From the NCBI GenBank assembly GCA_001724265.1, contig MEDY01000127.1:49260-69259 (forward strand): a DNA stretch of 20,000 nt, in the 5' to 3' direction. The translations under genes were made by a program, and so were the position numbers. This DNA is from Rhizaria sp. SCN 62-66 (Eukaryota). The notes beneath the pieces are model-generated. The model saw only the letters and a program-made list of their open reading frames with translations. It did no database searches and had not been told where the DNA came from. Within the stretch, counting starts at the first letter, position 1, and each line of letters opens with the position of its first letter. Below, one piece after another: positions 1 through 19,201 of this stretch.

Positions 1-64
1 TACTGGACCCCTCGTTCTGTTCCGACTGGCTGCCGATCACAAAGCTGCTCTCTGCACCGGAAAG

Positions 65-3000
65 ATGGCCACGCATCGGTTGACTCGGGTTTTCGCCCGT
101 ATTCAGCGCGCATGCAACGCCGCAGTCCTTCCCTTTTCTCCTGCGTCTGCTCTTGCTCCTGCACATGCAGTTGCATCGACATCGACTTGTAACACACCGA
201 GTGCTGCTACTTCTTCTTCTCCTCACGCATCACCGGCACCGAGCGCTGGTGTTGTGTGCGATGTTGCGACTGCGCGCGCAATCTTTCTCGCTGCTCTTCG
301 CACCTCGCTTTCTCGCAGCGAACACGTTTCTCAAGCAACATTCAACAGTACAAGCAGTGCTGCTAACGCGGCTGCTGTGATGATTGCTGGCACTAGCGCG
401 GGCGCATTTGCAACATCTATGTTCAAGCCTAGCCATGCTGTGCTCGCCCAGTCTAAGAAGCACCAGAACAAACACAGCAACAGCAACAGCAACAGCAACA
501 ACAATAGCAACGGAAACGACTCTGATAGCAAGTCGACTCTCAACAGCGCTGCTGATGGCCAGCCGACCGCTGCCGCGAATGCCAGCGCCGCCGAGCCTCC
601 CAGCAAGCGCGCGTCTCTGGCCACTTCTGCCCGGTCGCTCTTCTCCCGCATCCAGTCCGCCGCCAACACCATGAACGAAGCCAACCCCAAGAACCCTAAG
701 AACAGCAGCAACAACAAGAGCATGGCCAGCGCTAGCTCCTCCCCTGCCGGCGCGCCTTTCGCCGACCTGCGCGAATATAAGCCGCTGTCCCCGCATCCGA
801 ACGCGGGCGCGGGCGCGGGGTCGCGGTCCGCCCACGCCCGCCACCAGCAGTTCCAGCAACAGCAGCAGGCCAAGGCGGAGGCGGCGAACCCGGTGGTGCC
901 GATGCCCAAGATGGGCTTCCCGGTCATCGGGCTCGTGCTGCTGGTGCTGGTGCCGGTGTTGCTGGCCGCCGCGCAGAGCCCTCGCGCGCAGGCGCAGTCG
1001 CCGGAGAGCTACGACAAGACGTACGGCAGCAAGGACTCGAGCAGTGAGAATGCTGTTAATGCGAGTGCGAGTGGGGGCAGCGTATATTAGGCGAACCGTC
1101 TTCCGAATAACGACGATCACACCGCGAAAGTCCCTTCAGCAAGCGCCAACAACAGTAAGAGTGTCGTATCCGTTGTCGAGAGCTCAACAACAACAACAAC
1201 AACGATCACGACGACGACGACAGTGTCCGACACTGCGACGGGGGAGACCGGTGATCTCAACAGCGGCAGCAGCAGTGACCATGAGCAGCAGCTTAGAGCG
1301 CCCCTGCACCGGACTGCCCTCAGCACATAGGCAACTAGACTCCCATTAAACTCCCACAATAACAACACTGCCAGCGATGAGGTACGTACAGTGAAGGCGC
1401 GTGCGCTGTCGCTCGCCTACTTAGCCTGTGTCGCTGCCCCCATGAAGCTGTTGGCGGCCACGGCGCGGTCGCTGCGCTTTACGATCCTCTTGATCCGCTT
1501 CCTGCCTCTCTTGGCGCTCGTCGCTGTCTGCTACGCGATTCCGCCCCCTCTTTACGACCAGTCGCACAGCGGCGCTGCGAACGAGGGCGAGCGGCGACCT
1601 AACTTTTACGAGCGGCTAACTTTATTCACCAACACGGCGCTCACGCGCGCGCTGGCCCGCAGCGGCCCCGCGTTCGTGAAGCTCGCGCAGTACGCATCGA
1701 CGCGGCCCGACGTGTTGCCACACGCGCTGTGCACGCAGCTGGGCGCGCTGCAGGACGACACGGAGCCGCACTCGTGGGCCGAGAGCGAGAAAGCGCTGGT
1801 GAGAGCGCTCGGGGAGGACTGGGAGGATGTGCTTTGTATCAGCGAGCATGATAAGCTCAAACCGGTCGGATCTGGGTGTATTGCGCAGGTCTATATGGGC
1901 AAGATGCGTTCTCCTGACAAGAAAGCGACCAAAAGCAGCATTATGACGTACAGTGCTCACCAGAACGCTGCTCACAGTCATACCTGCTCTGCTCACGGTC
2001 ACTTCGCGTCGGCCGATGCGGATAGGTTTGACTGGGATGACGTTGCGATCAAAATCATCCACCCGTCGGCACAATGGGTTCTCTCCCGTGACCTGGCCAT
2101 TGTGCGCACTATCGCACGTCTTGCATGCTATATCCCGCCGCTGCGGGATTTTTTTGCACTGATGCCGCCCTTGCAGCTCGTGCACGAGTTCGAGCTGCTG
2201 ATGTAGTGCCAGCTTGATTTGCGGCACGAGGCCGAGAACATCAACATGATGCGGCTTAATTTCGGGCTTGATACCCCGCAGTCACTGCAACTCCGCAGCA
2301 AGGGGTACATCACCAGCAACAGTAGTAGTGGTCTCCGCAATAGTGTTAATGCTCCTCCTAAGTCCCGCTCCTCGTCGCTGACTGCTTCTGCAGCCTCTAC
2401 AGCTCACGGTCATCAGAGCGGGCAACAGGCACCTTCGCCCGAGGCTGGCTATGTGTTCAGCCCCGTGCGCGCCATCGTACAACACCCGTCGTCTCCGTTC
2501 AGCATCGAGTTCCCTTCTGTCTACACGGCCACGCCCAGTGTGTTGGTGGAGCGGTTTCACTGGGGACTGCCGGCGTCGCACCTCATCGCGTCCACGCTGA
2601 GTGACCGTGAGCTGGAAGAGCACGCGACGGACTATGAGCAACAGAAGCTCGGTTTGAACAGTGGCAGTGGCAATATTAGTGGCAGCGACGCGAATAAGAA
2701 GATCGATGCCAGCAGGGCGCAGGAAGTTAAGCCGCCGTCGACAACGTCGTTGCAACACCTGCTGTTGCGTAACATGACGGTACAACAGCGCGAGACCGTT
2801 GCGAAAGAGGTTGCTGCCACCGGTCTCAACGCGTTTCTGCTGATGCTATTCCGCCACGGGTATTTCCACGCTGACTTGCACCCCGGCAACATCATCATCG
2901 ATCTCGGATATGACTGGCCACCACCTTGCACGGTCACTGTGCGTAACAGCAGCGAAACCCACAGTCAGTGCAGCGAATGCGCCCACAGCAGCCGCCCCGC

Positions 3001-4249
3001 TGCCACCCGTGGCGCTCACAGGCACTACGACACGGCGACGGTGACGTCTGCGACTGAAAGCGACATTAGCAGTTGTCTCGACGCGTTGGCTACGGTGCAT
3101 GTGTCAGACGACGCAGCTGCTGCCAGCGCAAAGCAAGCGAACCAAGAGCAGCTACACTACGTCAACACCATTCTTCACAGCAACAACACGGTCACAGACT
3201 TTCGCAGTAGCAACGGCAACAACGATACTGCAATTGATAACGTGAGTGTTCGCCCTGTGGCTACTGCAATCAAGGCATCTGTGTCATCTGTGCTGTCATC
3301 TCTCTCACAGACAGTTGCTGCGGCACTCTGTGAGAACAGCGTTTACAGGCAGTTCTACAACAGCATGGCTTGCAACGCGCCGTCGCTCACCCTCAAGCTC
3401 GGCCTGCCTACGCCGACCTCGACCTCAAACAACGATGACACGCCTGCGGACACCAGCGGCGGCTTAACTTCGACCACGGTTGATGCTCTCGTCTTCGAGC
3501 CAGCGTTGCCGTTCGCCCCGTTGACAATGTTCCCATCCACCGTGTTCCAAGCCTTACACCCAAACGACTCGCGCTTACACGAGGCCTTTGCCGCCGACCA
3601 CCCCTTAGCGTACCAGGCGTGGTACTTAGCCCACGGTCTCCCGCTGCCCCCGCGCCAGCCGCGGCTCATTCTCATCGACGCCGGCATGACAACCCCTCTG
3701 CTCGACAGCGAAATGGTCAACTTCCGCGACTTGTTCTATGCTGTTGCGCTGGGCAGGGGCAAGGAGGCCGCGGAGATGATGGTCGACCGCGCCCCCACGC
3801 GGCCTAACTTACCGCCACGGAGCCCGGAGTCGCGACAGCAGTTTGTCGACACGGTCTCGGCGTTGATCGACAAGGCCGCCAGCGCGGGGTTCAAGCTCTC
3901 CTCCCTCGGCGTGGTCGAGACGCTGCAGGGCCTTGTCACCGCTGCCAGGACGCACCTCGTGCCGCTGGATCCGGCGTTTCTCTCTGTCATCGTCGCTGTG
4001 ACGGTGACCGAAGGCGTCGGCCGCTCGCTCGACCCCAACGTCGACATCGTGACGCCGGCGATCACTGTCGTGGCCAAAGCGAGGATTGATGAGCTGTTGG
4101 CGCAGCAGACGTGCAACTTAAGCCGCCTGAAGAGGCTTGGCGGCATGGCGGGATATAACACGAGCACTGTCGAGGGCGCTCTTGCAGAGACCGCGGCGGA
4201 CGCCACTGTGGGGGTTGAATCTCCCGCAGCTGAGAAGAAGACTGAGTGA
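65..4249 (+). CDS. ABC1/UbiB (aarF-domain) atypical protein kinase, ADCK2/Cqd1-like; 1394 aa if the three in-frame TAG codons (1088-1090, 1328-1330, 2204-2206) are read as sense
   Basis: ORF-track pieces 65..1090, 1391..2206 and 2219..4249 share one frame, and the gaps translate openly apart from TAG. UbiB motifs occur in order: GPAFVKLAQYASTRPD, PVGSGCIAQVY, VAIKIIHP, EFELLM*CQLDLRHEAENI, FHADLHPGNI, LILIDAGM, EGVGRSLDPNVDI. The Arg/Ala/Ser-rich, acid-poor N-terminus resembles a mitochondrial presequence. Ends TGA 4247-4249. The kinase call is firm; the exact start at 65 is less so. Confidence 0.88.
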
Positions 4250-4393
4250 CGGATTAACGATCAACCGCCTGTAATTTATTCAACGAATCTTCATAATTTA
4301 TTCTGTAACGTCATATTGTTATGATATCAATATGAATACACACTATATAGCTTATCTTCCTGAAGTAAATCTTTTGTCAAGTACCCAACATGA

Positions 4394-7300
4394 TCAAATC
4401 CTCTGCTGCTACTGCTGCTGTACCTTTTGCTGTTGGCGCTTCTTGTCTTCCTCAACGATTGCAGCCCACTTGGCCAGCCTCGCCGCCTCCGCAGCAGCCT
4501 CTGCCGCTTGCTTCGTGCCCTGCCCATGCTTGGTGACTGCTGCCGCTGCCGCCGCCGCCGCTGTTGCAGCAGCTGTGGCAGCTGGCGCAGTACCGCGTGT
4601 TGAAGAAGAGCCTCTGACGCTGGTGCTGCTGCTGATGTTGCGTCCAACAATTTCATCATCATCGCTCACGTCAATCTGTTGTGTCGGATCAAAGTCAAGC
4701 CGCATATTGACATTTACCTTATTTCTCGGCACACGAGTCTGCGCGTTGTTGTTGTGACTCGACTGGGACTGTGTCAGCGACTGAGTCTGAGACTGCGGCG
4801 ACTGCCCGTGCGACAGCGCATGCAGCGCCTGCGCCCTGGCCGCCGCCCCCGCCGCCGCAGCAGCGGCCCCCTTGGCGCTGGCTTCCGTCGCGGCCGCCGC
4901 CGAGGGGCGCACGGCGGGCCTCGCGGTGCCGTCATTGCCCGAACCGACCTTGAACGGTGCCGTCGCGTGGCGGTTGCTCGTCCCGCAGCCGCAGTGCACG
5001 CCGAGAGTCGTGTGCGTGAGGTGAGCGGTGCAGTCGCGCGTATGAGTCACAGCGTCCGTGCCGTCGTTATGTGGAGACGCATCATCAGGAGTTTGCATCG
5101 GACCCTCGGCATCATCACAGGAGTTGTGAACGTGCTTGGCGTTGTGCGTGGATGTGGGTGAGCTAGGGTTCACATTCGGAACGAAGCCGGCTTGACTTGC
5201 GATATACTGCTGCCGCTTCAACCGCGCTTCAGCCTCCGCAAGCGTTTGCCTCAGCATCACTTGCCTTCCTGTCTCACCAGTGTGCGCACCGACAAACGCA
5301 CCGCGCGCCCGCGCCCGCGACGGCGACGACAGAGCGAGCGCGGACGGCGCCGCAGCGGGCGCGGCGGCCTCGGTGGCGGCGGCCGGAAGCGGCACAGGGC
5401 CGTTGCTGTTCGTGCAGTTGGTCGCAACGACAACAGTGTTGCTTTTGTTCTCATTGCTGGTGCTTTGCGTGACGTGGAAAGGCGGCGTTTGAAGCGGAAT
5501 TGTGCGCGTTGTCGCAAGACGATCGCGCAAAGTTAAACCGCAATTATTGTTGTTCACGGAAGCAACAAGCGCAGCGGCTTCAGTGGACAAGCCAGCTGAT
5601 GAGCCATTGTTGCACGAGTTGCGGTGCAGGAGAGATGCCAGCAAAGCGTCGTCGTCCTCCTTGCTGTATTCATCATGGCTGCCGCTATAACCATCAGAGC
5701 TCGGATCATAGTCGTCGACCGCGTCAGCGTCATGCATCCTGTTGCCCGCGTTCGCATTGTTCGCATTAGCATCACTCTGCGACTGCGACTGTGCGAGCAC
5801 ATGCGAGTGCGATTGTGAGTTTGCACCTTGTTGCTGCTGATGCTGTTGCTGTTGCTGTTGCTGGAGCGAAAGTAGCGAATGGGGCGTATGCGTGAAACTG
5901 ACAATTAACCCACCATGCACCAGCACAGTCCCGACATTGGCTACACCAGCCACCACAACCCCAGGCGCAGTCTGCTGCCGTTGCCGCTGCTGGTTCTGGT
6001 TCAGATTCGACATGATGAGCTTCCTGGTTAGCCTCGCAACTGTAATCGCTTGGCTCGACTCGACGCTCGGCGTTACTTGCGACGGACCCCGGATCACGCG
6101 CACAGGCGCATCGCCGGGCGCGGCTTGACTTAAATCATACTAGCTGCACTGCTGCTGCTGGTGATGGGGGTTGCGCACGAGAGGAAACTTAGCGCGGGGG
6201 TACTTGCACGTGACAGCAGGCGCGGTGTTCACATTCGATGTCGCGCTTCGAGAGCTCTCACCACCGGGGTTCTGCTGCTGATGATCGAGATCATCGTGAT
6301 CGCTATCGTGTGCGTTCTCACCTCGGTCAAGCGGCCCACGCCAGAGCAGGCCCTGTCGGGCATCAGCGCTGGCCTGCGCTAAATCGCCCCACCACTGACC
6401 CTCGGTGCTGTTCTCGGTCTTCGCCACCGTCTCGGCGGCGTACAAATCCTATCCGCTACTGTTGCCTTGAAGAGGGTTCACAAAGTATCCGCCAGTGCTA
6501 GCGCTGCTGTTGCCAACACGGTGTGATTTGGTGCGCTTGATCAGCGCGGGCTCCGGCCTCGCCCGCGGCACCTTGGCCGGCATCGGCTTGGCCGTTGCTC
6601 CCGCCAGGTCCGGCCCGTACACCGCCGACATCGCAGTCGCGGGCCCTGGCCCCAGAGACGACTCCGCGAGCGGATGGCTCGCCCAGTCGATCGGGAACAC
6701 CACCGACGCCGCGGGGACCGTGCCGGCACTCGCGGACACCGGCGGCATCGCAAGCCCCTCCGCAGACACGTGGGATTGGGAGCCAGGAAACGTGTGAGTC
6801 ATCGGTACCGGTGCCGTGCGTTCTAGAACAGCCTCGCGCGCCATGGCGGCGACGCGTGCGCCCGCGATTTGCCTGCGGTTGCGGCCTGTGGCAGCCACCC
6901 GCACGCCGAGGCTCAGCGCCTGCGCGCCTTTGCCGGCCGCGGCCGGGCTGCTGAGGCTGCTGGCCGCGGCGATGAGATGACGCGTGTTGGCGCGCGCCGT
7001 CATCGATAGCGACGAGGCGTGGTTGCTGAGCGCGGCGCCGGAGCAGTCGCTCGCGACGGCCGGGTTGCTGTAGCTGCGGACGTCGTTCGCGCGAGTGCCC
7101 GCGCCGCGGCTCGTCTGGGCGCGTGCAATACAGGCGGCCGTTTTGTGATTGTGATTGTCGTTGTTGTTGATGTTCGAGTTGGGGTTTGCTGCGAGTGCGC
7201 CGTGGTTGGGGACAGCGGCGGCAGTGGCGACACCGCATCCTACGCCGACGCCGGCAGCGGCGGCCCTGTCCAGCAGCGGAGCAATGTCCCTGCGGAGACG

Positions 7301-7966
7301 CAGGATGCGGCTCTCTTGCACTTGCCGCAGACCGGCCGCGACCGACTGCGCGGGCATCACGTACGGCGACTGCGACTGAGACGGAGACAGAGCGGAACGA
7401 GGCGTTGATTTGATGTGCGAGGCGGGCGAGTGAAAGTACCCTGAGCCGTCCAAGTACCCTTGCTGGTACGCAGTCGCTGTCGCAGTCATACTGTTGGCGT
7501 TGACGTTGGAGTTGGAGTTGGCGTGTTGGGGGACAGGAAGCGGGATGCCAAGTCGGTCATGAGCCCACTGCGGCATCGCGGCGGCGATGGAGCCGGGCGG
7601 CAGCAGGACCATTGACTGCTGGGTGCGGAATAGCGCGTCATTGTCGTCAGCGCTATCACCTACGGATAGAGATGATGAAGGGTACTCGTCGTTGATGAAG
7701 CGAACGGTCGATGCGTTGGCACTCGAAGTCGGGTAACCGGCAGAAGCAGCACTGCCAGCGGCCGGGGCGAGGGCAGGACCGTAAGCCCGCGGCCTATAAG
7801 GCGATGAAGATACGTTAGACGGTAGAATCATCGACCCCGTAGAGCGAAGAGCCGATGGCATAGTGACGCTATGCGCGGAGGTGTGGGGAGCTGAGGCCAT
7901 CGCAGCAGGTCCAGACGCGAAGGCCATGCCGCTCGGTCGCGAGCGAGCACTGTCGCTAGATGACAT
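4394..7966 (-). CDS. Hypothetical low-complexity (A/S/Q/N/H-rich) protein; 1190 aa if the three in-frame TAG codons (6449-6451, 6140-6142, 4409-4411) are read as sense
   Basis: ORF-track pieces 6449..7966, 6140..6445 and 4409..6103 share one frame and are separated only by TAG. ATG at 7966-7964 follows an AT-rich spacer with an in-frame TAA. The C-terminus QQQKVQQQ*QQRI ends at TGA 4396-4394, where composition turns AT-rich. No domain recognised. Confidence 0.75.
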
Positions 7967-9783
7967 TATGAGGAGCTATTAAAAAAGGAAATAATACAAC
8001 TATAACAAAAGGATCGGGAAAAGAGCGGGCAGTGAGTTTGACGATGCCGTTGATTCAATCCAGAACGGTTTCTTCCCTCCATCGCTCAGGCTTCATCTCC
8101 AAGCCACAGTGCAGCAGCGAGGCATAGACAATTAAGAGTATTTCTCATAATGGCAAACGACTGGAAAAATGCCGGCAAGATATGGAATTTGGGATGTGTA
8201 TTTGAAGAAGAATATATTAACTGGATAACGGGCGCGATACTATTCCCACGGGGATTCTTTGTCGTAGAGACAGCACGCTTTAGATTGAAACGAAACAAAA
8301 TGGAGGAAGGTTTGCACGAATGCCAGATCGACACGGACACAGAGACTAGTTCAGCTTGAATTATCTAGCGCCTGTGGTGAGACTGCCATGCTTGCAAGAA
8401 GATGGTGATCGAATCCCCAAACGAAGAGACAACAAAGTGACTGAAGCAGACGTCACATCGCACACTTTGCAGACGAAAACGACCCACACAGGAGGCGGTC
8501 GCGTTATCGTGCTCAGCTGCGATGTCGCGTCATGCGTGTCTTTGTGATGGTTGTGTAGAGGGCCAATAAATAACAGTTCAAAGCTCAGATGAGCCTTGGC
8601 AGCGAACCCTGTACACAGGCTCAACAAGAGACACACTCGTTTTGTGACAAACAGCGATCAAAGCAGCGAAAGCAAGCAACGGCTCAAATCAGGGAGTCAG
8701 TTTACGATCAGTAATAGTGACATTACTTTGCAACATCACCAAAGATATATGCAACATGTCAAAGAACAGAATACTGTGGCAGATGTACTGATATCCTGAC
8801 GGTACGCTTGGTTGCTGGCACTGGCTTGTTGTCACGCAGTCGCACGGTGGTGGAGCTAGGACTGCTTTAGTAGTATTATTAACGGTGCCACTGGCTTAAT
8901 TAACTGTAGTAGCAGTGACGTTCGCGCCAGGAGGCAGTGGTTGCGTTGTTTGTTGTGTGAAGTTACATTAGATCCATTAATGGTTGATAGTGCGTCAGAG
9001 CGCATGAGAGGCGAATGGTGGAGGGGAGAGAGATAAATAAGACGGTCGGTGTGAATTATCTGCAAAAGGGAAAGTGAAAGCAAACAGTATAGCGCAAGGA
9101 AAGGAGTGTGTTGTTGTGACTGGTGAGCTGTGCTGTTCTGTTGTCATGCCTTGCTGTGTTTGCGATGTGTAGGTTGTGTTTCGTGATAGTTTCATCGTAG
9201 TCGCCGTTGTTGTTGTTGTTGTTGCTCCTCCGTTGAGATATTGTTGCTGCTTCTCGTGCCACTGGTAATGCTGCTACTGATGCGAAAGCGCGTGTGCAAG
9301 TGTTGGTGTTACTTTCCGTTTGTGTGGTGCGTGATCGTCTTTGTTGCGACTGAGGTTTGGAAAACTGGCATCGTAGTGCTTCTTACTAAACTTGCGTTTG
9401 TTCACGTTTTGCGTTGTGCATACTGGTATCGCATAGATTCGGCTCCACTTTTAATCTCATGAGGAATTGCTACATCAAACACCAATCACCAAGCATTAGG
9501 AGCATGACAACATCCGAAGCAGCGTCAGCAGAAACACGAATCACGACGAACACAGGAGTACCACAACAATACGGAGACAAACAAACACACACGCACAAAG
9601 CTCAGCAACAGAAGCAACACCAGCAGCAGCGACACGAGAAGAGTTCAACAACAACGAGCCAACAAACACCGAAGCAGACGACGACAAGACTAACACAAAG
9701 CACGCACGTACACATCAGGCGACACGAGTACTGACACAACAGCACCCCTGATAGCTACTGAGAGCGATATCAGGAGCAGCAAT

Positions 9784-9785
<2 letters not shown>

Positions 9786-9836
<51 letters not shown>
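9786..9836 (+). repeat. (CAG)17 / (CTG)17 trinucleotide microsatellite
   Basis: 17 perfect CAG units counted directly, preceded by CAG GAG CAG CAA TAG and followed by CAA. Confidence 0.97.
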
Positions 9837-9839
<3 letters not shown>

Positions 9840-10024
9840 GTCACAACAGTGGCGACACCAGCGACGCCAGTGACACATGATAGAAATATAGATAGACAGA
9901 GATAGGTAACACGCAGGACCGCACGCGCGCGAATGCGAGTGCGCAAGTGCAAGTGATGCGGCTATACAGCAGCGACACACCGCGGCAAGTTAACACATCG
10001 CATTCATAGCTCATACCAAGCGCT

Positions 10025-11113: not shown

Positions 11114-13060
11114 ATGTCGTTCTTCCCCCCGTCTCAGGACGGCGCTGGCGTGGCCCCTGCTGGCGCACTGGCCTCCACGAGCGACTTTCGCGACTCTCGT
11201 GACGGTCGCGACAGCCGTGATAGCCGCAGCCGCGACCCCCGCGACTCCCGTGAGTCTCGCGACGCTCCCCGCAGCAGCCGCGGTGGCAGCCGCGACCGCG
11301 ACAGCCGCAGCCGTAGCCGCGACCGCGACGGGAACCGTCGCAGCTCGGTTGGCTCTGGCTCTAGTAGTTCGCGATACGACCGTGAGCGCTATGACCGCGA
11401 CCGCTACGACCGTGGGTCGACCGGCCGCTACGACGATCGTGACCGATACGTCGTCCCCAGCAGCAGCGACCGTTACTCTTCGAGTAGCGCCGACCGCGAC
11501 CGTGAGCGTGACCGCGACCGTGACCGTAGTGACCGTGACCGCGAGCGTGAGCGTGAGCGTGAGCGTGAGCGTGAGCGTGAGCGTGACCGCGGTCGTGGTG
11601 GCCGCAGCGACCGCGACCGTGACCGTGACCGTAGTGACCGTGAGCGCGGTGGCGGTGGCGGTGACCGTGGGCGCGATTCGTACCGCGGTGACCGCGACCG
11701 CGACCGCGCGAGTGACCGTGAGCGCGGCAGTGACCGTGAGCGTGACCGGCCCGCAGCCTTCGACTCTGACGCGGTGGCACGCTCCCTCGCTTCCGGCGAC
11801 AGCGCCCCTGGCTCTGGCTCGAGTGCGGCTGCTGCGGTGCATCCCTCCCGGGCTGGCCTCGTGGGCTCAGCCTCCGCGGCCCCCCGCTTCAGCCACCAAA
11901 CCGACTCTGCCGCCGCCACTGGCTCCACTGGCCCTGCGGTGCCCAACTCCGGGCTCAACCCGATCCTCGTCGCGCAAACGCGTCTCTCGCGCCGCATCTT
12001 CATCGGCAACCTGCCCGCGCACCCCGCGCTGACTGACCGCATCGTGCAGCAGTTCTTCGAGCTGTTCATGTCGCAGCGCGGCTTCACGACCCCCGGTCCG
12101 ATCATCAACGTCGCGCTCGCCGCTGAACGCACCTACTGCTTCGCCGAGCTGCGGTCCGTTGCCGACGCCGTGGCGTTGGTGCTGCTGCTTGACGGGCAGG
12201 AGATGGGCGGCCGCCGTCTGCGCGTGTCGCGCCCGCGCGACTTCACCCCAGCCCCGCCCGCGCTCGCCAATTTCATCGTCGGCCTGCCCCCGGGGTCCTT
12301 CCTCCCGCCCGTGTCGACGCCGGTTGAGGCAGCGCTGCTCAACGCCACCGTCGCCGCGCAGCTCAACTCGGCCGCGGCGCTTGCCGCGCTCCCCGCACCC
12401 GTGCAGAGCGCGCTCACCGCCGAGCTGGGCCAGATGGGGCTGCTGACCGCGGTCACGGCGGCGGCCAAGATCGCGCCCGTGCCAGTGCCCGTGGACCCCG
12501 CGACGGGCCGGGTCACCACCGGCAGCGTCGTCGTGCTCTCGCACCTGCTCGCGGAACACGTGGCCCCCACCGCGACTACCCCCACGAGTACCGCGGATGC
12601 CGTCGAAACTGCGGCGTCTAAGGGGGTACTTAGTCCGCTGAGCGACTCGCGCGCGTGGTTGGACCTCGTCGACGACATCCGGTCCCAGCTCACCACGACC
12701 GTGCTCACGGTCACCGCGGCGGCCGGCGCGCCCCGCACCGCCAACAGCGACCGTGAGCTGCAACGGCCTGTGCTGCGTGTCATCGTGCCCCGCACCGCGC
12801 CGTTCGACCCCGCCGTGCTGTCAGAGGAGGCGGGGCGCGGCGGCGGCGTGGCGAGCGACGGCAGCGAGGTGGACCTGGCTGCGGACTGTGGTCCCGTCAA
12901 TGCAGCCCACGCGGGCTCAGTCTGGGTGCTGATGAGCTCGGAGCAGGGCGCGCGCGCAGTCGTCGAGGCAATGCACGGACGTCTGTACCGCAGGAACAAG
13001 GTCGTCGCGACTTTTGGTACGATGGAGGAGTTTGAAAAGCTTCTTAGGAACTCTGTGTGA
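11114..13060 (+). CDS. U2AF2: U2 snRNP auxiliary factor large subunit (U2AF65/U2AF2)-like protein, divergent, 648 aa, intronless CDS
   Basis: N-terminal RS/RD/RE region. RRM1-like TRLSRRIFIGNLP...YCFAELRSVADA...LDGQEMGGRRLRVSRPRDF matches recalled U2AF65 TRQARRLYVGNIP...FAFLEFRSV...LKIRRPHDY. C-terminal UHM-like region: VVVLSHLL...DLVDDIRSQL...VLRVIVPR...GSVWVLM...AMHGRLYRRNKVVATF. Ends TGA. Confidence 0.8.
   Translation: MSFFPPSQDGAGVAPAGALASTSDFRDSRDGRDSRDSRSRDPRDSRESRDAPRSSRGGSRDRDSRSRSRDRDGNRRSSVGSGSSSSRYDRERYDRDRYDRGSTGRYDDRDRYVVPSSSDRYSSSSADRDRERDRDRDRSDRDRERERERERERERERDRGRGGRSDRDRDRDRSDRERGGGGGDRGRDSYRGDRDRDRASDRERGSDRERDRPAAFDSDAVARSLASGDSAPGSGSSAAAAVHPSRAGLVGSASAAPRFSHQTDSAAATGSTGPAVPNSGLNPILVAQTRLSRRIFIGNLPAHPALTDRIVQQFFELFMSQRGFTTPGPIINVALAAERTYCFAELRSVADAVALVLLLDGQEMGGRRLRVSRPRDFTPAPPALANFIVGLPPGSFLPPVSTPVEAALLNATVAAQLNSAAALAALPAPVQSALTAELGQMGLLTAVTAAAKIAPVPVPVDPATGRVTTGSVVVLSHLLAEHVAPTATTPTSTADAVETAASKGVLSPLSDSRAWLDLVDDIRSQLTTTVLTVTAAAGAPRTANSDRELQRPVLRVIVPRTAPFDPAVLSEEAGRGGGVASDGSEVDLAADCGPVNAAHAGSVWVLMSSEQGARAVVEAMHGRLYRRNKVVATFGTMEEFEKLLRNSV
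11543..11584 (+). repeat. (GAGCGT)7 hexamer repeat encoding (ER)7, within a wider GACCGY/GAGCGT repeat region (~11490-11750)
   Basis: Seven perfect units counted directly; in frame with the RD/RE region of the U2AF-like CDS. Confidence 0.93.
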
Positions 13061-13968: not shown

Positions 13969-14755
13969 ACGCATCTATAGTCAAACGATACTCTGTGATT
14001 GCAATCACGCAGGCCAGAGATGATGTCGTATCTGCACTGTGTTAGTGCTTTGCGGACACCCGCTGTTATAATTAGCTAGTTTTTGTTCTAAAATACAACT
14101 CTCTGTCTGCTTTTGCAGATGCCTTTATGCACGCATTTTGTCAGTGTCTTCTGGTGGTAGCAGAATCATACACTGTTCTCAGAGCCTCGTGCATTCTCAG
14201 CAGAACTCTTTTGCAGGTACGTTCTCGAATTGCCACGAGGAACACTTTGCGTTGTAAGAAGAGCACATTGCTGTATTACAACAGTGACATAGGAGACATG
14301 AATAGAAAAAGAGTATAGTACTCAGCATCTAGGATCTGATATAGACACAAGTCGCAATATCGTGTGCAATTTGTCTGGTCATTTAGTACTCACAATCACA
14401 ACATGCCACCTCATAGTTCGACTCTGACAGCAAGAAAGAGCATCATGTAGAAAGCTGTTGCATGATCAGAACCGAAACATCTCAAAGGGGACTCACATAT
14501 ATCACCAATCTCATCACTATCACATAACGTATAAACGAGGACAAACAAAGTGGCATAATAATAAAAAAAAGCAGAGGATGCATCAGCATAGACGAAACAC
14601 ATAGTCGTGCTTCATACATGTACACTGAAATTAGTTTACAAAAATAAACAATGATTGAGTTAAGAGAAAAAAAATAGCTTCACTGACTTCGAGTTGGACT
14701 CTTCAGGATCGTCGTCTCTCATGCTTGTAGATTTCCTTCAGCACAGGCGAATGCT

Positions 14756-16493
14756 TTACTGCGCGTCCGCGAAACCAATGCGGGAGACGATAAGGTTGAG
14801 GTTCTCGTCCGCGGTGGGGTCGATCTGGAGCAGGTGCAGGAACATGTGCGCAAAAGTGTCAGGGATGACGCGCGCACCGATGATCTTCGCGATGAACTCC
14901 TTCGACAGACGCAGTGCGCCGTGGGACGCAGCCGCGTCCGACTCGGGCTCGGCCGTCACCGCCGCGGTGTGAATGGCGGCGACCAAGGCCTGCGCAGTGG
15001 CCAGCGGCACCGACTTGCGGAGGTCGGCGATGATGGCAGAGGCGTGCTGGAGAGAGAAAGCCTTGACGGTGTTCTCCATGAGCATCGCCACGGTCATGGG
15101 GCCGACGCCGCCGGGCACGGGGGTGATGAACGAGGCGGCTATTAGCGATGATAGTCGCATCACAAAAAGAAAAAGAAGAATGCGCGATACAAGTCCGGGA
15201 GAAGCAAGTGTTTAAGTGCATTGAAGGGCGAAATGAAAAGAAGAAGGTTTAGAAAGTGAGACTTGGAGGTATAGATCTGTGTCGATTGTAAAAATAAAAA
15301 TAGATTTGATAATGCGAGACAAATGCGAGTATTATTTGCGGCGTACCGGCGCGGGCGGACTCGAAATCGACGTCGCCAACGAGGCGGTGGCCGGTCTTCT
15401 TGGTCTCGTCGTCGATCGCGTTGATTCCGACGTCGATGACAACGGCACCGTGGCGCAGCCACGAGCCCTGGACGAAGAGAGGGCGGCCAATGGCGGCAAT
15501 AACAATGTCCGCAGTGCCAACGACGGCGGCGAGGTTAGCAGTCTTGCTGTGGCACATGGTGACGGTGGCGTTCATGCCCTATTTCGCAGGAGTGTAATTT
15601 TAGTTAACACAGGAATCGCGGTAATAGTAGTAGCAGTCGAATAAACAGTGAAATAAAAAGAAGGAAAATCAAGTAAAAATGAGGAATCGTGCAACTTTGA
15701 TCATCGATTCACGAAGTAAACGCCACCCAGGAAGGTTTTTGTTCGCGCGATGCAAACTGAAGGGGATGACGAGAGAATGACGACAGTGCATTCCGGCCTC
15801 TCTCACGGAATAAATCCAGAGCATACGGAGTTGAAATAAAGCAAATAGCTACACATAATAGCATTATATACATTTGTCGTGCATTTATGCAGAAAAGATA
15901 CGTACCTGAAGGAGCATGGAGACGGGCTTGCCGACGAGGTTGGATCGACCGATAACGACAACATTCTTGCCCGCAACGGTAATGTTGTACTGCTTGAGCA
16001 GCTCAATGCAGCCCAGCGGCGTGCAGGGGATCAGTGGGGCATTGATGCCGTCGCGGAACAGCAGACCGGCGTTCATGGGATGCAGGCCGTCAACGTCCTT
16101 CTCGGGGGAGATCTTCTCGATCACGCCGACAGTGTTGAGGTTGGCAGGCAGGGGAAGCTGGATGAGGATGCCATTCACAGCGGGGTTGGCGTTAAGGTCG
16201 GAGATGAGCTTCTCCAAGTCCTCCTGAGAGACATCAGCGGGCAGCGCGTGCGTCTCGTGGAGGAAGCCGACCTCCTCGCACGCCTTGGCCTTCATGCGGA
16301 CGTACGTCGCGGAGTCCTTGCGGTCGCCCACGATAACGACGTCGAGGCGAGGGGTGAAGGTGCTCTCGTCGGCGCCGCGGGAGAGGCCGGAGCTCTTGAA
16401 AGCAATGACCTCCGCGGCAACGCGCTCGCGAACAACGCGGGAGCCTTGTGCACCCGAGATAAGCTCAGCAGTCGTGCTCAGAGCGAGAGACAT
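14756..16493 (-). CDS. folD: Bifunctional methylenetetrahydrofolate dehydrogenase/cyclohydrolase (FolD), 400 aa; exons 16493-15906, 15578-15347, 15138-14756
   Basis: Motifs [66 protein letters not shown] and [17 protein letters not shown] join in frame across two GT-AG introns. Ends TAA 14758-14756. Confidence 0.95.
15139..15346 (-). other. FolD intron 2 (208 nt, phase 1)
   Basis: G|GTACGC donor and GCTAATAG|CC acceptor; joins DFESARA to [11 protein letters not shown]. Confidence 0.88.
15579..15905 (-). other. FolD intron 1 (327 nt, phase 0)
   Basis: CAG|GTACGT donor and AAATAG|GGC acceptor; joins MLLQ to [11 protein letters not shown]. Confidence 0.88.
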
Positions 16494-17689
16494 GGGGAAA
16501 CTGGGGGGAGGACTGTGCCGATATTTCGGGTAGAGAAAAGCGAGACGCAGACAAAATGAGGCGGAGTGTTCCAAATGGAAAGATAATCTTCAATGTAATG
16601 GAAATGGAATTACAACAAAAAAACTGCCAACAACGAAGAAATAACGCGAATACAAGCTGTCAAAGTGTGGCTTCACCGATTTGCATAATCAGCCCGTCGA
16701 CCTGCCCGTCCACAGTTCCGAAAAATGCAGTGTAACACTTCTGTTTTCTGCACTTTTTCAGCTTGTACAACATGTAACTGATGCAGACAGCTGTACGCAT
16801 TTTATCCGGCGTTATAACACGTCATACACATCTGACTACGATGTTTATGCAGAAGTTATCGCTTCTTGTGCTGAGATATAAGAGGTATTGTTCCAGGGGC
16901 TGATACTGTGTTACACGTGGTAGAAAAGGCATATGTCAATGATTATAAGACATATCCCACTTAAGCATTGCTAAAATATAACACATACCACACTGCGTAG
17001 TCTTTCCAAACATGGCATTTTATACATGCGTTCTCATGTACATTTCAGTTCTTCAGGCGCTTCATAATGACTTGAGTAAGCTACTTAAAGTTATCATTTT
17101 TAAGTCAGTTTAGGCACAGAAATGCGTGCTTAGCTATAACCGTAACTATATCATAGAGAAACAACGTTATCATACTCTATTTACCTTGGGCTTTGAAAAA
17201 AACCGATAGATTTGCGTCAATAACCTAGCGATATTGTACAAGTTGCAAGAGTAACATGGGTTAAAACATTGACAATAGTGACGGTATACATTCCAAGAGT
17301 ACTTGAAGCGCAGGCATTGGTGCCTTTAGAGCAAATAAAATTGCATTTGGCACGTCATGCTGCAATATGGTTTGAACCGCACTTAGTTACAGCTCAGTAC
17401 GTTTGCGGCGCCGTTGCAGCTCTGCGTGGGCTGTGGGCGACGTTGAACGTCGACGTGCCGAGACGAGGGCTGCTCAATAATGAATACAGTGCACTGAACC
17501 TGCCGTCTATGAACATAGAACACCATGCAGAGATTCAAAGAATACTATTCTAAGTTTTTCAATTGTCTTCGGTCCAATATGTCTTGTTTGAACATCATGG
17601 TATCACTTTAAAATCATCTGCGGCTTTTCGCCGTTTCCCCTTGTCCGCACTTCTTCCTGACGCCCGCACATGTTCCTAGACCGAGTGCA

Positions 17690-19201
17690 ATGTCCGCTCC
17701 TCGCAACCAAACCGCCCCTATGACCCTTGCCGCCGGCGCCGCTGTTGGTTTGGTCGGCATCATCATCGGTTACTTCGCTTCCCAGGTCTCCCCATGCAAG
17801 ACCCTCCTGAAGTGGAAGTCTTCCGCCTCCGCTGCCCCCGCTGCCGCCGCCACTGCGACCACCGCAATGACTGGTGCCGCGTCAATCGAGCACGACAAGC
17901 CCGTCGAGACGCGCATGTACGAGCAGGCTAAGGCTCTCAACGAGTATCTTCTGCTGCACTACGGCGAGGCCTTCTCTGGCAACTTCGCGCCCAACGCGGA
18001 CGGCACCTCCTACTCCCTCGACTTTGGCACTGAGCTCACGAACGAGTTCGGCAACTTTGGTCTGTTTGACGTTAAGACCGGCAAGGTCAACGCCCCGCTT
18101 TTCCCCACGTTTGCGCTTAACTTCCCTGCGCGCGTCGCTCAGCTCGCCGCGCACTTCGCTGGTACGCCTGGCGTTCTTATCTAGACAACTTTTAACTTCG
18201 TTTAACACAATGTTTCTTGCGCAAGTCTTGCCCGTTAGCAACAAAATGTTCCCAATATCCGGAACTAATGATGGTACAACTTTGACTTGTAGTTTTCAAT
18301 GCGTACATATAGCAGTATATTTACATGTTTGCCTTTAAATTTATTTGTTGTTTTGCTTGTTCTGACTCAGGCGTCGCGACCTCTGCCGCGCCCGCCGGCC
18401 GTGCTCTTGACGTCGGCTGCGCTGTCGGCCGCACTACGTTCGAGCTCTCCAACTTCTTCGACACTGTCATCGGCATCGACTACAGCAACTCGTTCATCGA
18501 AGCGGCGAAGCTGTTCGGCACTGGCGCCATCTGCCCCGTCACCGTTCCCATCGAGGGCGGGCTTAACTTCAAGTCCACCGTCTCCATCGCTGGCCGTTTC
18601 CGCCCCGCCGCGTGCTCCTTCCAGGTTGGTGACGCCGGCAACATGGACGTGGCTGCGCTGGGCAAGTTCTCGTGTGTGACTGCCGCCAACCTCATCGACC
18701 GTCTCCCGCGTCCCCGCGCCTTCCTCAAGGTACGTTCTTGTTCTTCTGAAACGTCGTACAGTGTTCACCAATATGACGTATAAGATGACAACACGTTTAT
18801 ATTACACAGTTATGATGTTTTGTTCCGAAATTATTTGATCTTGGCCTTTTACTACCTCGTTTTAAACTCGTCACTCACTTTTTCATGTTGCTCTATCTGT
18901 TTCTGTCGTCCTCACCCAGGCGTGCGCGCACCTGGTGGCCCCCGGCGGCGTCCTCGTCATCACGTCCCCGTACACCTGGCTTGCCGAGTTCACCCCGCGC
19001 GAGGAGTGGCTCGGCGGCGGCTACCCCACCGTCTCCGCCGACGGGACCGAGAAATTCACCACCACCTTCGAGGCCCTCAAGACAGAGCTTCTGGGCGATT
19101 TCGAGCTCGTGCACCACAGCCACATGCCGTTTTTCATCCGTGAGACCGGCCGCAAGAACCAGTTCACCCTCGCGCACGCTACCGTGTGGCGCCGCAAGTA
19201 A
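17690..19201 (+). CDS. Class I SAM-dependent methyltransferase resembling the C-terminal (mercaptohistidine N-methyltransferase) domain of ovothiol synthase OvoA; 370 aa; exons 17690-18161, 18371-18729, 18920-19201
   Basis: YE..KALNEYLLLHYG, NFPARVA, RALDVGCAVGRTTFEL, GIDYSNSFI, FQVGDA, ANLIDRLPRPRAFL, PGGVLVITSPYTWLAEFTPREEWLGG and PFFIRETGRKNQFT match the recalled OvoA C-terminal pattern. N-terminal hydrophobic segment AAGAAVGLVGIIIGYFA. Ends TAA directly after ATVWRRK. Confidence 0.87.
18162..18370 (+). other. Methyltransferase intron 1 (209 nt, phase 1)
   Basis: G|GTACGC donor, AT-rich body, TCTGACTCAG acceptor; frame preserved on splicing. Confidence 0.88.
18730..18919 (+). other. Methyltransferase intron 2 (190 nt, phase 0)
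   Basis: AAG|GTACGT donor and CTCACCCAG acceptor; joins AFLK to ACAHLVAPGG. Confidence 0.9.

Follow-up and report, generated by a model that had tools for sequence, protein, structure and literature searches.

An in-frame TAG in an ABC1/UbiB-type kinase gene suggests that UAG is a sense codon in an uncultured, GC-rich eukaryote

We suggest, at a probability of roughly 0.8, that the window, the whole stretch of 20,000 nucleotides (20 kb) analysed here, is nuclear DNA of an uncultured, intron-bearing and GC-rich eukaryote in which UAG would be decoded as an amino acid and not as a stop. The codon at the centre of this proposal is a TAG at 2204-2206 that lies in frame within a gene for an ABC1/UbiB-type atypical kinase. 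The earlier note on this DNA had claimed that this TAG is translated through instead of ending the kinase, and the claim is supported by the ungapped alignment of homologs at the site, equal conservation on its two sides, its recurrence across assemblies, five more in-frame TAGs and the finding of no unambiguous TAG terminator among six gene ends. To take TAG as sense genome-wide is to extrapolate from two genes in 20 kb, and only one of the six TAGs, that at 2204, falls where homologs exist, both gene B and gene A's N-terminal extension being orphans. The features concerned are these:

65..4249, plus strand: gene A, an ABC1/UbiB-type atypical kinase ORF of 1394 codons from ATG 65, with three in-frame TAGs
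1088..1090, plus strand: in-frame TAG within gene A's N-terminal extension, with the motif A-N-R-L-P-x-N after it
1328..1330, plus strand: in-frame TAG within gene A's N-terminal extension, with A-T-R-L-P-x-N after it
2204..2206, plus strand: in-frame TAG in a helix of the kinase N-lobe, running into the invariant Q..D....E-A..N block
4247..4249, plus strand: TGA terminator of gene A, from the ORF reading
4394..7966, minus strand: gene B, a low-complexity protein of no Pfam family, 1190 codons, with three in-frame TAGs
6449..6451, minus strand: in-frame TAG in gene B (X3 contig 5874-7346, 0 differences)
6140..6142, minus strand: in-frame TAG in gene B (X3 contig 5874-7346, 0 differences)
4409..4411, minus strand: TAG within a CAG run at the end of gene B, four codons ahead of its TGA (X3 contig 4230-5238, 0 differences)
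4394-4396, minus strand: TGA terminator of gene B, from the ORF reading

Positions 2186-2233 read GAG TTC GAG CTG CTG ATG TAG TGC CAG and onward, in the frame that stays open across 2-4249, and re-reading the window sequence returned the same codons and the same translation, EFELLM*CQLDLRHEA, as had been reported. Of 152 ABC1 proteins retrieved for alignment to the query segment, 146 could be aligned, and 139 of them reach across the site. None of these 139 homologs has an indel within -6 to +9 of the TAG, which occupies exactly one column, and BLASTP against the closest relative, P0003, leaves the block ungapped and pairs the TAG with Arg. The spacing is therefore as exact as had been claimed, with no room for an intron, and the alignment to the Pfam ABC1 family and to relatives that the earlier note had called for gave a PF03109 match and, against the homologs, one ungapped column for the TAG. 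The flanking columns are strongly conserved, with F(-5) in 135/139, Q(+2) in 139/139, D(+4) in 129/139, E(+8) in 139/139 and N(+11) in 112/139, and the window carries the majority residue of the F....Q.D...EA.N block at F(-5), Q(+2), D(+4), E(+8), A(+9) and N(+11). The TAG column itself is variable and does not reveal the residue, again as had been stated: it holds K26, R22, L14, S10, T10, I9, N8, E8, A6, V5, F5, Q4, Y4 and others (n=139), mostly a K/R/polar mix. Glutamine at only 4 of the 139 homologs is a point against the preferred reading, in the one column that could be aligned. Five metagenome loci have Q, N, R, R and S at this column; they are those with a usable match among 37 distant metagenome loci from a scan with alignment A1, a set from which the contig of P0003 is absent. 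Relatives' DNA was found neither among the 86 pattern matches of a single-protein metagenome scan nor, with alignment A1, among 24 matches in genome contigs, nor among 42 matches in viral contigs, and the exact pattern of the site had 0 matches in genome contigs.

Past the TAG, 680 codons follow without a further stop, for which P is ~3e-8 at the lowest off-frame stop density of gene A. The catalytic-loop motif H-x-D-x-H-P-G-N and the metal-binding motif D-A-G are characteristic of the ABC1 family. Both had been described as intact, and HADLHPGN and IDAG were found downstream of the TAG in the same frame; they are conserved in P0003 too. Identity to P0003 is equal across the codon, at 113/198 upstream and 308/554 downstream, and reaches 168/239 in the C-terminal part. 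The product of gene A is, judged from its sequence, a member of the ABC1/UbiB family: it matches Pfam PF03109 with an E value of 9.4e-23 and 81.1 bits against a cut-off of 22.9, in three stretches owing to long inserts, and a 1415-aa readthrough ORF also matches PF03109. Among its neighbours in a language-model atlas are automatically named clusters, "aarF domain-containing protein kinase 2-like" at rank 3 and "C10F6.14c family" at rank 14, beside bacterial, viral and algal ABC1 clusters that point to no one taxon, and these neighbours make the ADCK2/Cqd1-type label a lead. Searches against solved structures returned 0 matches at E <= 0.001 for the whole kinase and chance-level matches for the N-lobe alone (a retroviral capsid at E 0.036 and above), among them an "ABC1 family protein" structure at a chance-level E of 0.091 whose alignment skips the TAG segment.

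The start of gene A is uncertain, with ATG 65 as the start used here and ATG 1442 as an alternative. With TAG sense throughout, a reading from ATG 65 meets no stop before the kinase, so that the fusion of 1394 codons is forced and is not an independent observation. Among the 150 matches listed, no best stretch begins before query residue 416, which leaves the N-terminal extension an orphan. Within this extension, TAGs 1088 and 1328 are each followed by A-[NT]-R-L-P-x-N, and the codons of the two copies differ synonymously, which argues for constraint at the protein level around these TAGs. Both TAGs are also followed by G, like the TAG/G at the end of FolD intron 1, and were considered as intron acceptors; this candidate was rejected, since 300-1500 keeps coding GC3, and since the five identified introns are AT-rich and begin G/GTACG[TC], whereas the sole nearby GGTACGT (1381) lies 3' of both.

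Genes A and B together comprise 2584 codons with 6 TAG, 0 TAA and 0 TGA in frame. Off frame, TAG makes up only 17/99 stops in gene A and 14/78 in gene B, and at the off-frame densities genes A and B would escape both TAA and TGA with chances of ~9e-15 and ~1e-11, respectively. GC3 periodicity is unbroken across the TAGs, staying high from about 300 to 4200 in gene A and following the minus strand in gene B; the gene-dense first 8 kb have 58-60% GC, and the non-coding DNA of the window drops to ~40-50%. Six gene ends, a small sample placed from the window sequence itself, could be read in the 20 kb, TGA for genes A, B and C and a centrin-like gene and TAA for FolD and a methyltransferase, and no unambiguous TAG terminator is among them. 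The two TAA ends are candidate terminators; FolD has a TGA six codons past its TAA. TAG looks like a rare codon: it amounts to ~4% of CAG+CAA+TAG in genes A and B, and none occurs in the 1048 codons of four codon-biased genes or exons (gene C, FolD exons 1 and 2 and the centrin-like exon). No in-frame TAA occurs in ~3600 codons, which is weak evidence given the GC-rich genome. In the 20-kb window a tRNA scan found no tRNA gene, and there were no Rfam matches; nor is eRF1 among the genes of the window. Genes A and B are both rich in low-complexity sequence.

Three genes of the window have introns, of which five were identified, all AT-rich and 200-330 nt long. A giant-virus origin was rejected on the ground of these spliceosomal introns and of a gene resembling RS-domain splicing factors. 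FolD is a stand-alone enzyme whose exon 1 has its best non-self match at 66%, its best named matches, at 45-49%, being to plants and an oomycete; for gene C the one match has 49% identity, and the best non-self matches of the window proteins are metagenome proteins at 48-66% identity. FolD "joints" were discarded as evidence of splicing, because their sides were 21-29 letters long or foreign letters stood between them, and were read as the FolD of other organisms.

The same sequence was found in bioreactor and wastewater metagenome runs that span several studies and years; the contigs which carry it reach 172 kb. Four runs were compared as contigs, X3 and X4 coming from two other studies, and X4 differs from the window at many non-coding sites. 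A contig of X4 (519-1622) covers TAGs 1088 and 1328 with 0 differences, and a contig of X11, from poly(A) RNA, covers TAG 1088 (804-1176), again with 0 differences, as a consensus contig. This is the single poly(A) RNA contig over a TAG, and it may derive from carried-over DNA; other contigs of X11 fall on low-GC stretches without an identified gene. The earlier note had named a read-level error at 2204-2206 as a threat to its claim, and the source is indeed a metagenome assembly in which none of the contig pieces listed spans 2204, the nearest X3 piece starting at 2281. The ends of the two ORFs that meet at the codon nevertheless recur, as indirect support for it: an exact 271-aa ORF ending just before the TAG (P0126) is present on 4 contigs and a 667-aa ORF after it (P0002) on 6, contigs that may partly stem from one sample. 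At the other five TAGs, contigs from the runs of the two other studies agree with the window without a single difference, and none of the 40 differences listed falls at 2204-2206. TAG 2204 is thus probably not an assembly error, and we give an error of sequencing or assembly at this codon a negligible chance. It is also very unlikely, in our view, that genes A and B are decaying under the standard code and that their TAGs are ordinary premature stops or nonsense alleles. A pseudogene classically betrays itself by in-frame stops, low-complexity sequence abounds in both genes and gene B lacks a known family, and since CAG, GAG and AAG are common codons here, TAG would be the commonest nonsense product. 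Decay would, however, have had to leave 2584 codons free of frameshifts, TAA and TGA, maintain GC3 periodicity throughout, and leave the same sequence in runs from several studies and years. Nor was the relaxed selection downstream of TAG 2204 that a pseudogene would predict observed, the protein identity to P0003 being the same on both sides and the catalytic motifs intact.

Recoding of selected sites under an unchanged code, whether by mRNA editing of UAG or by programmed readthrough, seems to us unlikely. In sexual-stage transcripts of some filamentous ascomycetes, A-to-I editing converts UAG to UGG, UAG being the favoured triplet, and the motif CARYYA marks a readthrough context. Every interrupted codon in the window is TAG, just as such editing would favour, and TAG is rare and absent from the four codon-biased genes or exons. 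But six sites in two adjacent genes would be a very high density for either process, the residue that editing would supply, W, occupies the 2204 column in 1 of 139 homologs, most of which have a polar or basic residue there, and a CARYYA-type context follows none of the six TAGs. Nor do the introns and the gene set look fungal (AT-rich introns of 200-330 nt, a stand-alone FolD, plant and oomycete best named matches at 45-49%). The X11 contig over TAG 1088, with 0 differences, also speaks against editing, weakly, being a consensus contig that may be DNA. In our judgement very improbable is an ambiguous code in which UAG is both sense and stop according to its position in the mRNA, as in lineages without a dedicated stop codon. 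A candidate for it is TAG 4411, which is ambiguous between a sense codon and the terminator of gene B, as it stands four codons before the TGA; were it a true terminator, TAG would have a dual meaning. A strictly sense reading, moreover, is what leaves the ORF from ATG 65 without a stop before the kinase domain. Against this, no gene end in the window needs TAG (4 TGA, 2 TAA), and the CAG run around TAG 4411 is equally compatible with a sense codon.

Our preferred reading, UAG as a sense codon, has consequences for the kinase and for the decoding machinery. The ABC1/UbiB kinase would be made as one full-length protein, with TAG 2204 supplying a single residue of the N-lobe helix ahead of the invariant Q..D....E-A..N block, and translation would end at TGA, possibly at TAA as well. 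By analogy with other UAG-reassigned lineages, the organism would read UAG with a CUA-anticodon tRNA or by efficient near-cognate decoding, alongside an eRF1 that recognises UAG poorly. Glutamine is the most likely residue, at roughly even odds; it is weakly favoured because one TAG (4411) sits in a CAG run, where it is the product expected of a synonymous C/T change if TAG means Gln. Of 1188 positions in gene B, 24 are flanked by Q on either side. The TAGs that open A-x-R-L-P-x-N and the K/R-rich 2204 column make Lys, Glu and other residues possible too. We tentatively entertain, as rather less than an even bet, that a lineage without a named genome has independently reassigned UAG alone, with UGA and UAA kept as stops and a residue possibly other than glutamine.

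Several variant codes offer points of comparison. NCBI table 15, the "Blepharisma" code, reads UAG as Gln and keeps UAA as a stop; table 6 reads both UAA and UAG as Gln and is used by some ciliates, dasycladacean algae and diplomonads; and the phyllopharyngean and oligohymenophorean ciliates considered below are AT-rich, with gene-sized or short chromosomes. The window resembles table 15 in having only UAG in frame, ends at UGA and possibly UAA, a rare UAG and one site in a CAG run. The same likeness holds for Iotanema spirale, in which UAG alone has become glutamine and UAA is still a stop (PMC5304391); unlike these, the window organism is GC-rich, has introns of 200-330 nt and is not evidently a fornicate or a ciliate. 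In the rhizarian exLh, UAG is reported as leucine, with 384 in-frame stops in 71 genes, all of them UAG, and with UAG scarce in ribosomal protein genes (PMC5304391). The window shares with exLh that its in-frame stops are all UAG, that UAG is avoided in highly biased genes and that the organism is uncultured and known from sequence only, but leucine is not favoured here (the 2204 column is mostly K/R/polar, with L in 14/139, and one TAG lies in a Gln run) and TAG density is far lower, at 6 in ~3600 codons.

Codes with UAA and UAG both as Gln are mentioned in a further source (PMC13524828). The window would fit such a code in that TGA ends 4/6 genes, while the TAA ends are unproven and the FolD TGA lies six codons further on; it differs in its ~3600 codons without an in-frame TAA, weak evidence in a GC-rich genome. 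A code with TGA as the sole stop is accordingly possible. Multiple UAG reassignments in phyllopharyngean ciliates (PMC11687900) and a code with UAA=Lys and UAG=Glu in an oligohymenophorean ciliate (PMC10553269) offer a parallel in that the meaning of UAG changes independently of UAA; unlike the genomes of these ciliates, the window sequence sits on contigs that reach 172 kb, and its gene-dense first 8 kb have 58-60% GC. Blastocrithidia nonstop, reported to have reassigned all three stops, likewise has in-frame stops in intact genes and proteins rich in low-complexity inserts, but the window has no in-frame TGA or TAA, has spliceosomal introns in 3 genes and is GC-rich, not AT-rich.

Departures from the standard nuclear code are reported to be rare outside ciliates, and changes of UAG without UAA rarer still (PMC5304391, PMC10553269). 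A literature search surfaced no paper describing UAG as sense in a GC-rich eukaryote from wastewater, and the window organism would be a new and probably independent case. Standard gene callers cut genes at each TAG, and this kinase stands in public protein collections as pieces of 271 aa and 667 aa; the proteome would hence be systematically mis-annotated, and contigs of the organism could be mistaken for pseudogene-rich or prokaryotic DNA. Since the sequence recurs in reactors across studies and years, material for genome, tRNA and proteome work should be obtainable. If true, a novel reassignment of UAG only would be a further case outside the ciliates in which the meanings of UAG and UAA have become uncoupled.

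Two long reading frames in the window are interrupted by stop codons of a single kind. Of the 149 stop-to-stop ORFs with a length of 70 aa or more (TAG translated as X), 89 were scanned against Pfam, the remaining 60 being alternative frames that overlap genes A, B, and C; the gene content was as follows.

65..4249 (+): gene A, ABC1 kinase
4394..7966 (-): gene B, long protein without a Pfam family
plus strand: gene C, RS-rich protein with a weak RRM match
plus strand: centrin-like EF-hand gene, at least two exons
minus strand: FolD gene, three exons
17687-19201 (+): SAM-dependent methyltransferase, three exons, Methyltransf_11/25 on the middle exon

The frame of gene A (1394 codons from ATG 65) is interrupted at 1088, 1328, and 2204 (+), and that of gene B (1190 codons from ATG 7966) at 6451, 6142, and 4411 (-), in all six cases by TAG; neither TAA nor TGA occurs in frame in these 1394 + 1190 codons, and in the off frames TAG makes up 17 of 99 stops for gene A and 14 of 78 for gene B. 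Third-position GC stays high across every TAG, the 900-1500 stretch included. TAG, and TAG alone, lies in frame in intact, conserved, and reproducible coding sequence, and we estimate a probability of about 0.8 that it is a sense codon in the host organism. As in-frame sense sites, 2204, 6451, and 6142 are firm; 1088 and 1328 are probable, since they depend on an orphan N-terminal extension being coding, and 4411 is ambiguous because a TGA stands four codons further on.

The TAG at 2204-2206 falls within the kinase N-lobe, in a frame open from 2 to 4249, and codons and frame match the translation given for this site in an earlier note. The readthrough protein fits the Pfam ABC1 profile (81.1 bits on PF03109, cut-off 22.9), and the catalytic-loop and DAG motifs are read in translation downstream of the TAG. 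Queried with the readthrough ORF (residues 1-742), an exhaustive HMMER search returned 3523 proteins at E <= 0.001, and an 85-residue segment around the TAG was compared with the best 150 plus two further proteins, P0003 and P0004 (152 distinct ids), of which 146 aligned and 139 cover the site. The exact spacing claimed earlier was borne out, as none of these 139 homologs has an indel within columns -6..+9.

Residues around TAG 2204 in 139 homologs (columns numbered relative to the TAG)
Column -5: F, 135/139
Column +2: Q, 139/139
Column +4: D, 129/139
Column +8: E, 139/139
Column +9: A, 117/139
Column +11: N, 112/139

The TAG column itself holds 18 residue types (K26, R22, L14, S10, T10, I9, N8, E8, A6, and, more rarely, V5, F5, Q4, Y4, H2, G2, M2, D1, W1), in agreement with the earlier statement that it is variable and does not reveal the residue. 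Five metagenome loci have Q, N, R, R, and S at this column, and P0003, the closest relative (787 aa; 419/873 identities with the gene A protein), has Arg opposite the TAG in an ungapped block. Gene A opens with an N-terminal extension of ~460 residues (65-1441, +) containing S/N/T/A runs and a hydrophobic segment; the best stretch starts before residue 416 in none of the 150 best matches (of 3523). P0128, a 1068-aa relative, likewise has ~375 residues preceding its kinase domain.

An assembly error at 2204 is hardly credible, being contradicted by recorded ORFs on both sides: an exact 271-aa ORF ending just before the TAG (P0126) was recorded from 4 contigs, and a 667-aa ORF restarting past it (P0002) from 6 contigs, the longest of 172 kb. 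Exact-sequence look-up left 4 of 7 ORFs without a record, their guessed starts probably being wrong. The other TAGs are covered with zero differences by contigs from public metagenome runs (X3, X4) of two other studies, as follows.

519-1622: X4 contig over TAG 1088 and 1328, 0 differences
5874-7346: X3 contig over TAG 6142 and 6451, 0 differences
4230-5238: X3 contig over TAG 4411, 0 differences

Support for the codon at 2204 itself is indirect, because the cross-run comparison was made with assembled contigs and none of the pieces listed spans the site. That genes A and B are pseudogenes is improbable, as both are devoid of frameshifts, TAA, and TGA, and conservation is equal on either side of TAG 2204: the gene A protein shares 113/198 residues with P0003 upstream of the codon, 308/554 downstream of it, and 168/239 over the C-terminal part. 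No stop occurs in the 680 codons past the TAG, for which P is ~3e-8 if the lowest stop density of the off frames is assumed, and neither this open frame nor the identity to P0003 gives any sign of relaxed constraint downstream. Slightly less unlikely is site-specific recoding, by RNA editing or programmed readthrough; it is compatible with the TAG-only pattern but does not fit the site density, the polar column at 2204, or the non-fungal gene structure. A context-dependent dual meaning of UAG, to which TAG 4411 and the upstream ORF without a stop could be attributed, seems a little less probable than pseudogenes. Exact spacing, equal conservation on both sides, and TAG-only stops support the earlier reading that TAG 2204 is translated.

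As to the residue, we give Gln about even odds, with Glu, Lys, Leu, Tyr, and Trp sharing the rest. Of the six sites, 2204 alone can be aligned with homologs, and its column is uninformative. TAG 4411 interrupts a stretch of CAG codons, which points only weakly to Gln because 24 of 1188 gene B positions are flanked by Gln on both sides. The peptide A-[NT]-R-L-P-x-N comes after both TAG 1088 (1088-1111) and TAG 1328 (1328-1351), in what looks like a short repeated motif opening with the TAG-encoded residue; the copies use different synonymous codons (e.g., CGT versus AGA for Arg), suggesting protein-level constraint that does not name the residue.

Five AT-rich introns were identified, each beginning with the extended donor G|GTACG[TC]; the window contains 10 copies of GGTACGY where 4.2 would be expected, and these donors account for 5 of them.

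15906/15579 and 15347/15137 (-): FolD introns, about 200-330 nt, both with TAG at the 3' end
13412 (+): donor of the centrin-like intron
18161 and 18729 (+): donors of the methyltransferase introns

These introns mark the DNA as eukaryotic and nuclear, and a trypanosomatid or giant-virus origin was rejected. The methyltransferase, with a hydrophobic segment predicted at its N-terminus, presumably resembles stand-alone ovothiol-pathway methyltransferases. FolD extends ~95 residues past the end of its THF_DHG_CYH_C match (14759-15050, -). A long region of Arg-Asp/Arg-Glu/Arg-Ser dipeptide repeats lies in gene C (11400-11750, +), where depth and variants are unusable because contigs of many other organisms stack up (maximum depth ~4800 in X4, with small indels). 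A long trinucleotide run at 9730-9840, in a low-GC stretch devoid of recognised genes, would read as poly-Leu or poly-Cys in minus-strand frames.

Some part of the window is present in 16 of the 17 listed runs, which span 9 studies, and at least half of its sampled words in 4; the runs are labelled bioreactor, wastewater, activated sludge, or microbial fuel cell, which makes the sequence a metagenome contig. Self matches aside, the best homologs of FolD exon 1 (66%; matches with a named source, plants and an oomycete, reach only 45-49%), the gene A kinase (48%), and gene C (49%, its one match) are all metagenome proteins. Judged by these matches, the host lineage is unsampled, no named genome being closely similar. 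GC is 58-72% within gene bodies and 38-50% between genes. The X4 strain departs from the window mainly in low-GC non-coding stretches, with 34 of the 40 listed differences falling within 7500-9600, 14280-14620, and 16590-17450, a distribution compatible with purifying selection on gene bodies.

By analogy with other reassigned codes, the host would possess a tRNA that decodes UAG and an eRF1 whose recognition of UAG is weakened; in the 20-kb window, a tRNA scan found no tRNA gene and there was no Rfam match. Termination would occur at TGA, perhaps also TAA, going by six gene ends: four use TGA (A, B, C, and the centrin-like gene) and two use TAA (the methyltransferase and FolD, the latter with another stop, TGA, six codons beyond). 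UAG-only reassignment is the code of Blepharisma (table 15). It is also described for Iotanema spirale, with Gln, and for the rhizarian exLh, with Leu (PMC5304391), and for several ciliates (PMC11687900, PMC10553269). Codes with both UAA and UAG as Gln are known from several lineages and are mentioned in PMC13524828. The present case functions like these. Its host, a GC-rich eukaryote with medium-sized introns, is not assignable to any of those lineages, and searches of the literature outside supplements turned up no account of such a eukaryote with UAG as sense. TAG is absent from the 1048 codons of a codon-biased set (gene C, FolD exons 1 and 2, and the centrin-like exon), which would be the behaviour expected of a rare reassigned codon and is comparable to that reported for exLh (PMC5304391). 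The UAG reassignment proposed here is a further case of an already known phenomenon.
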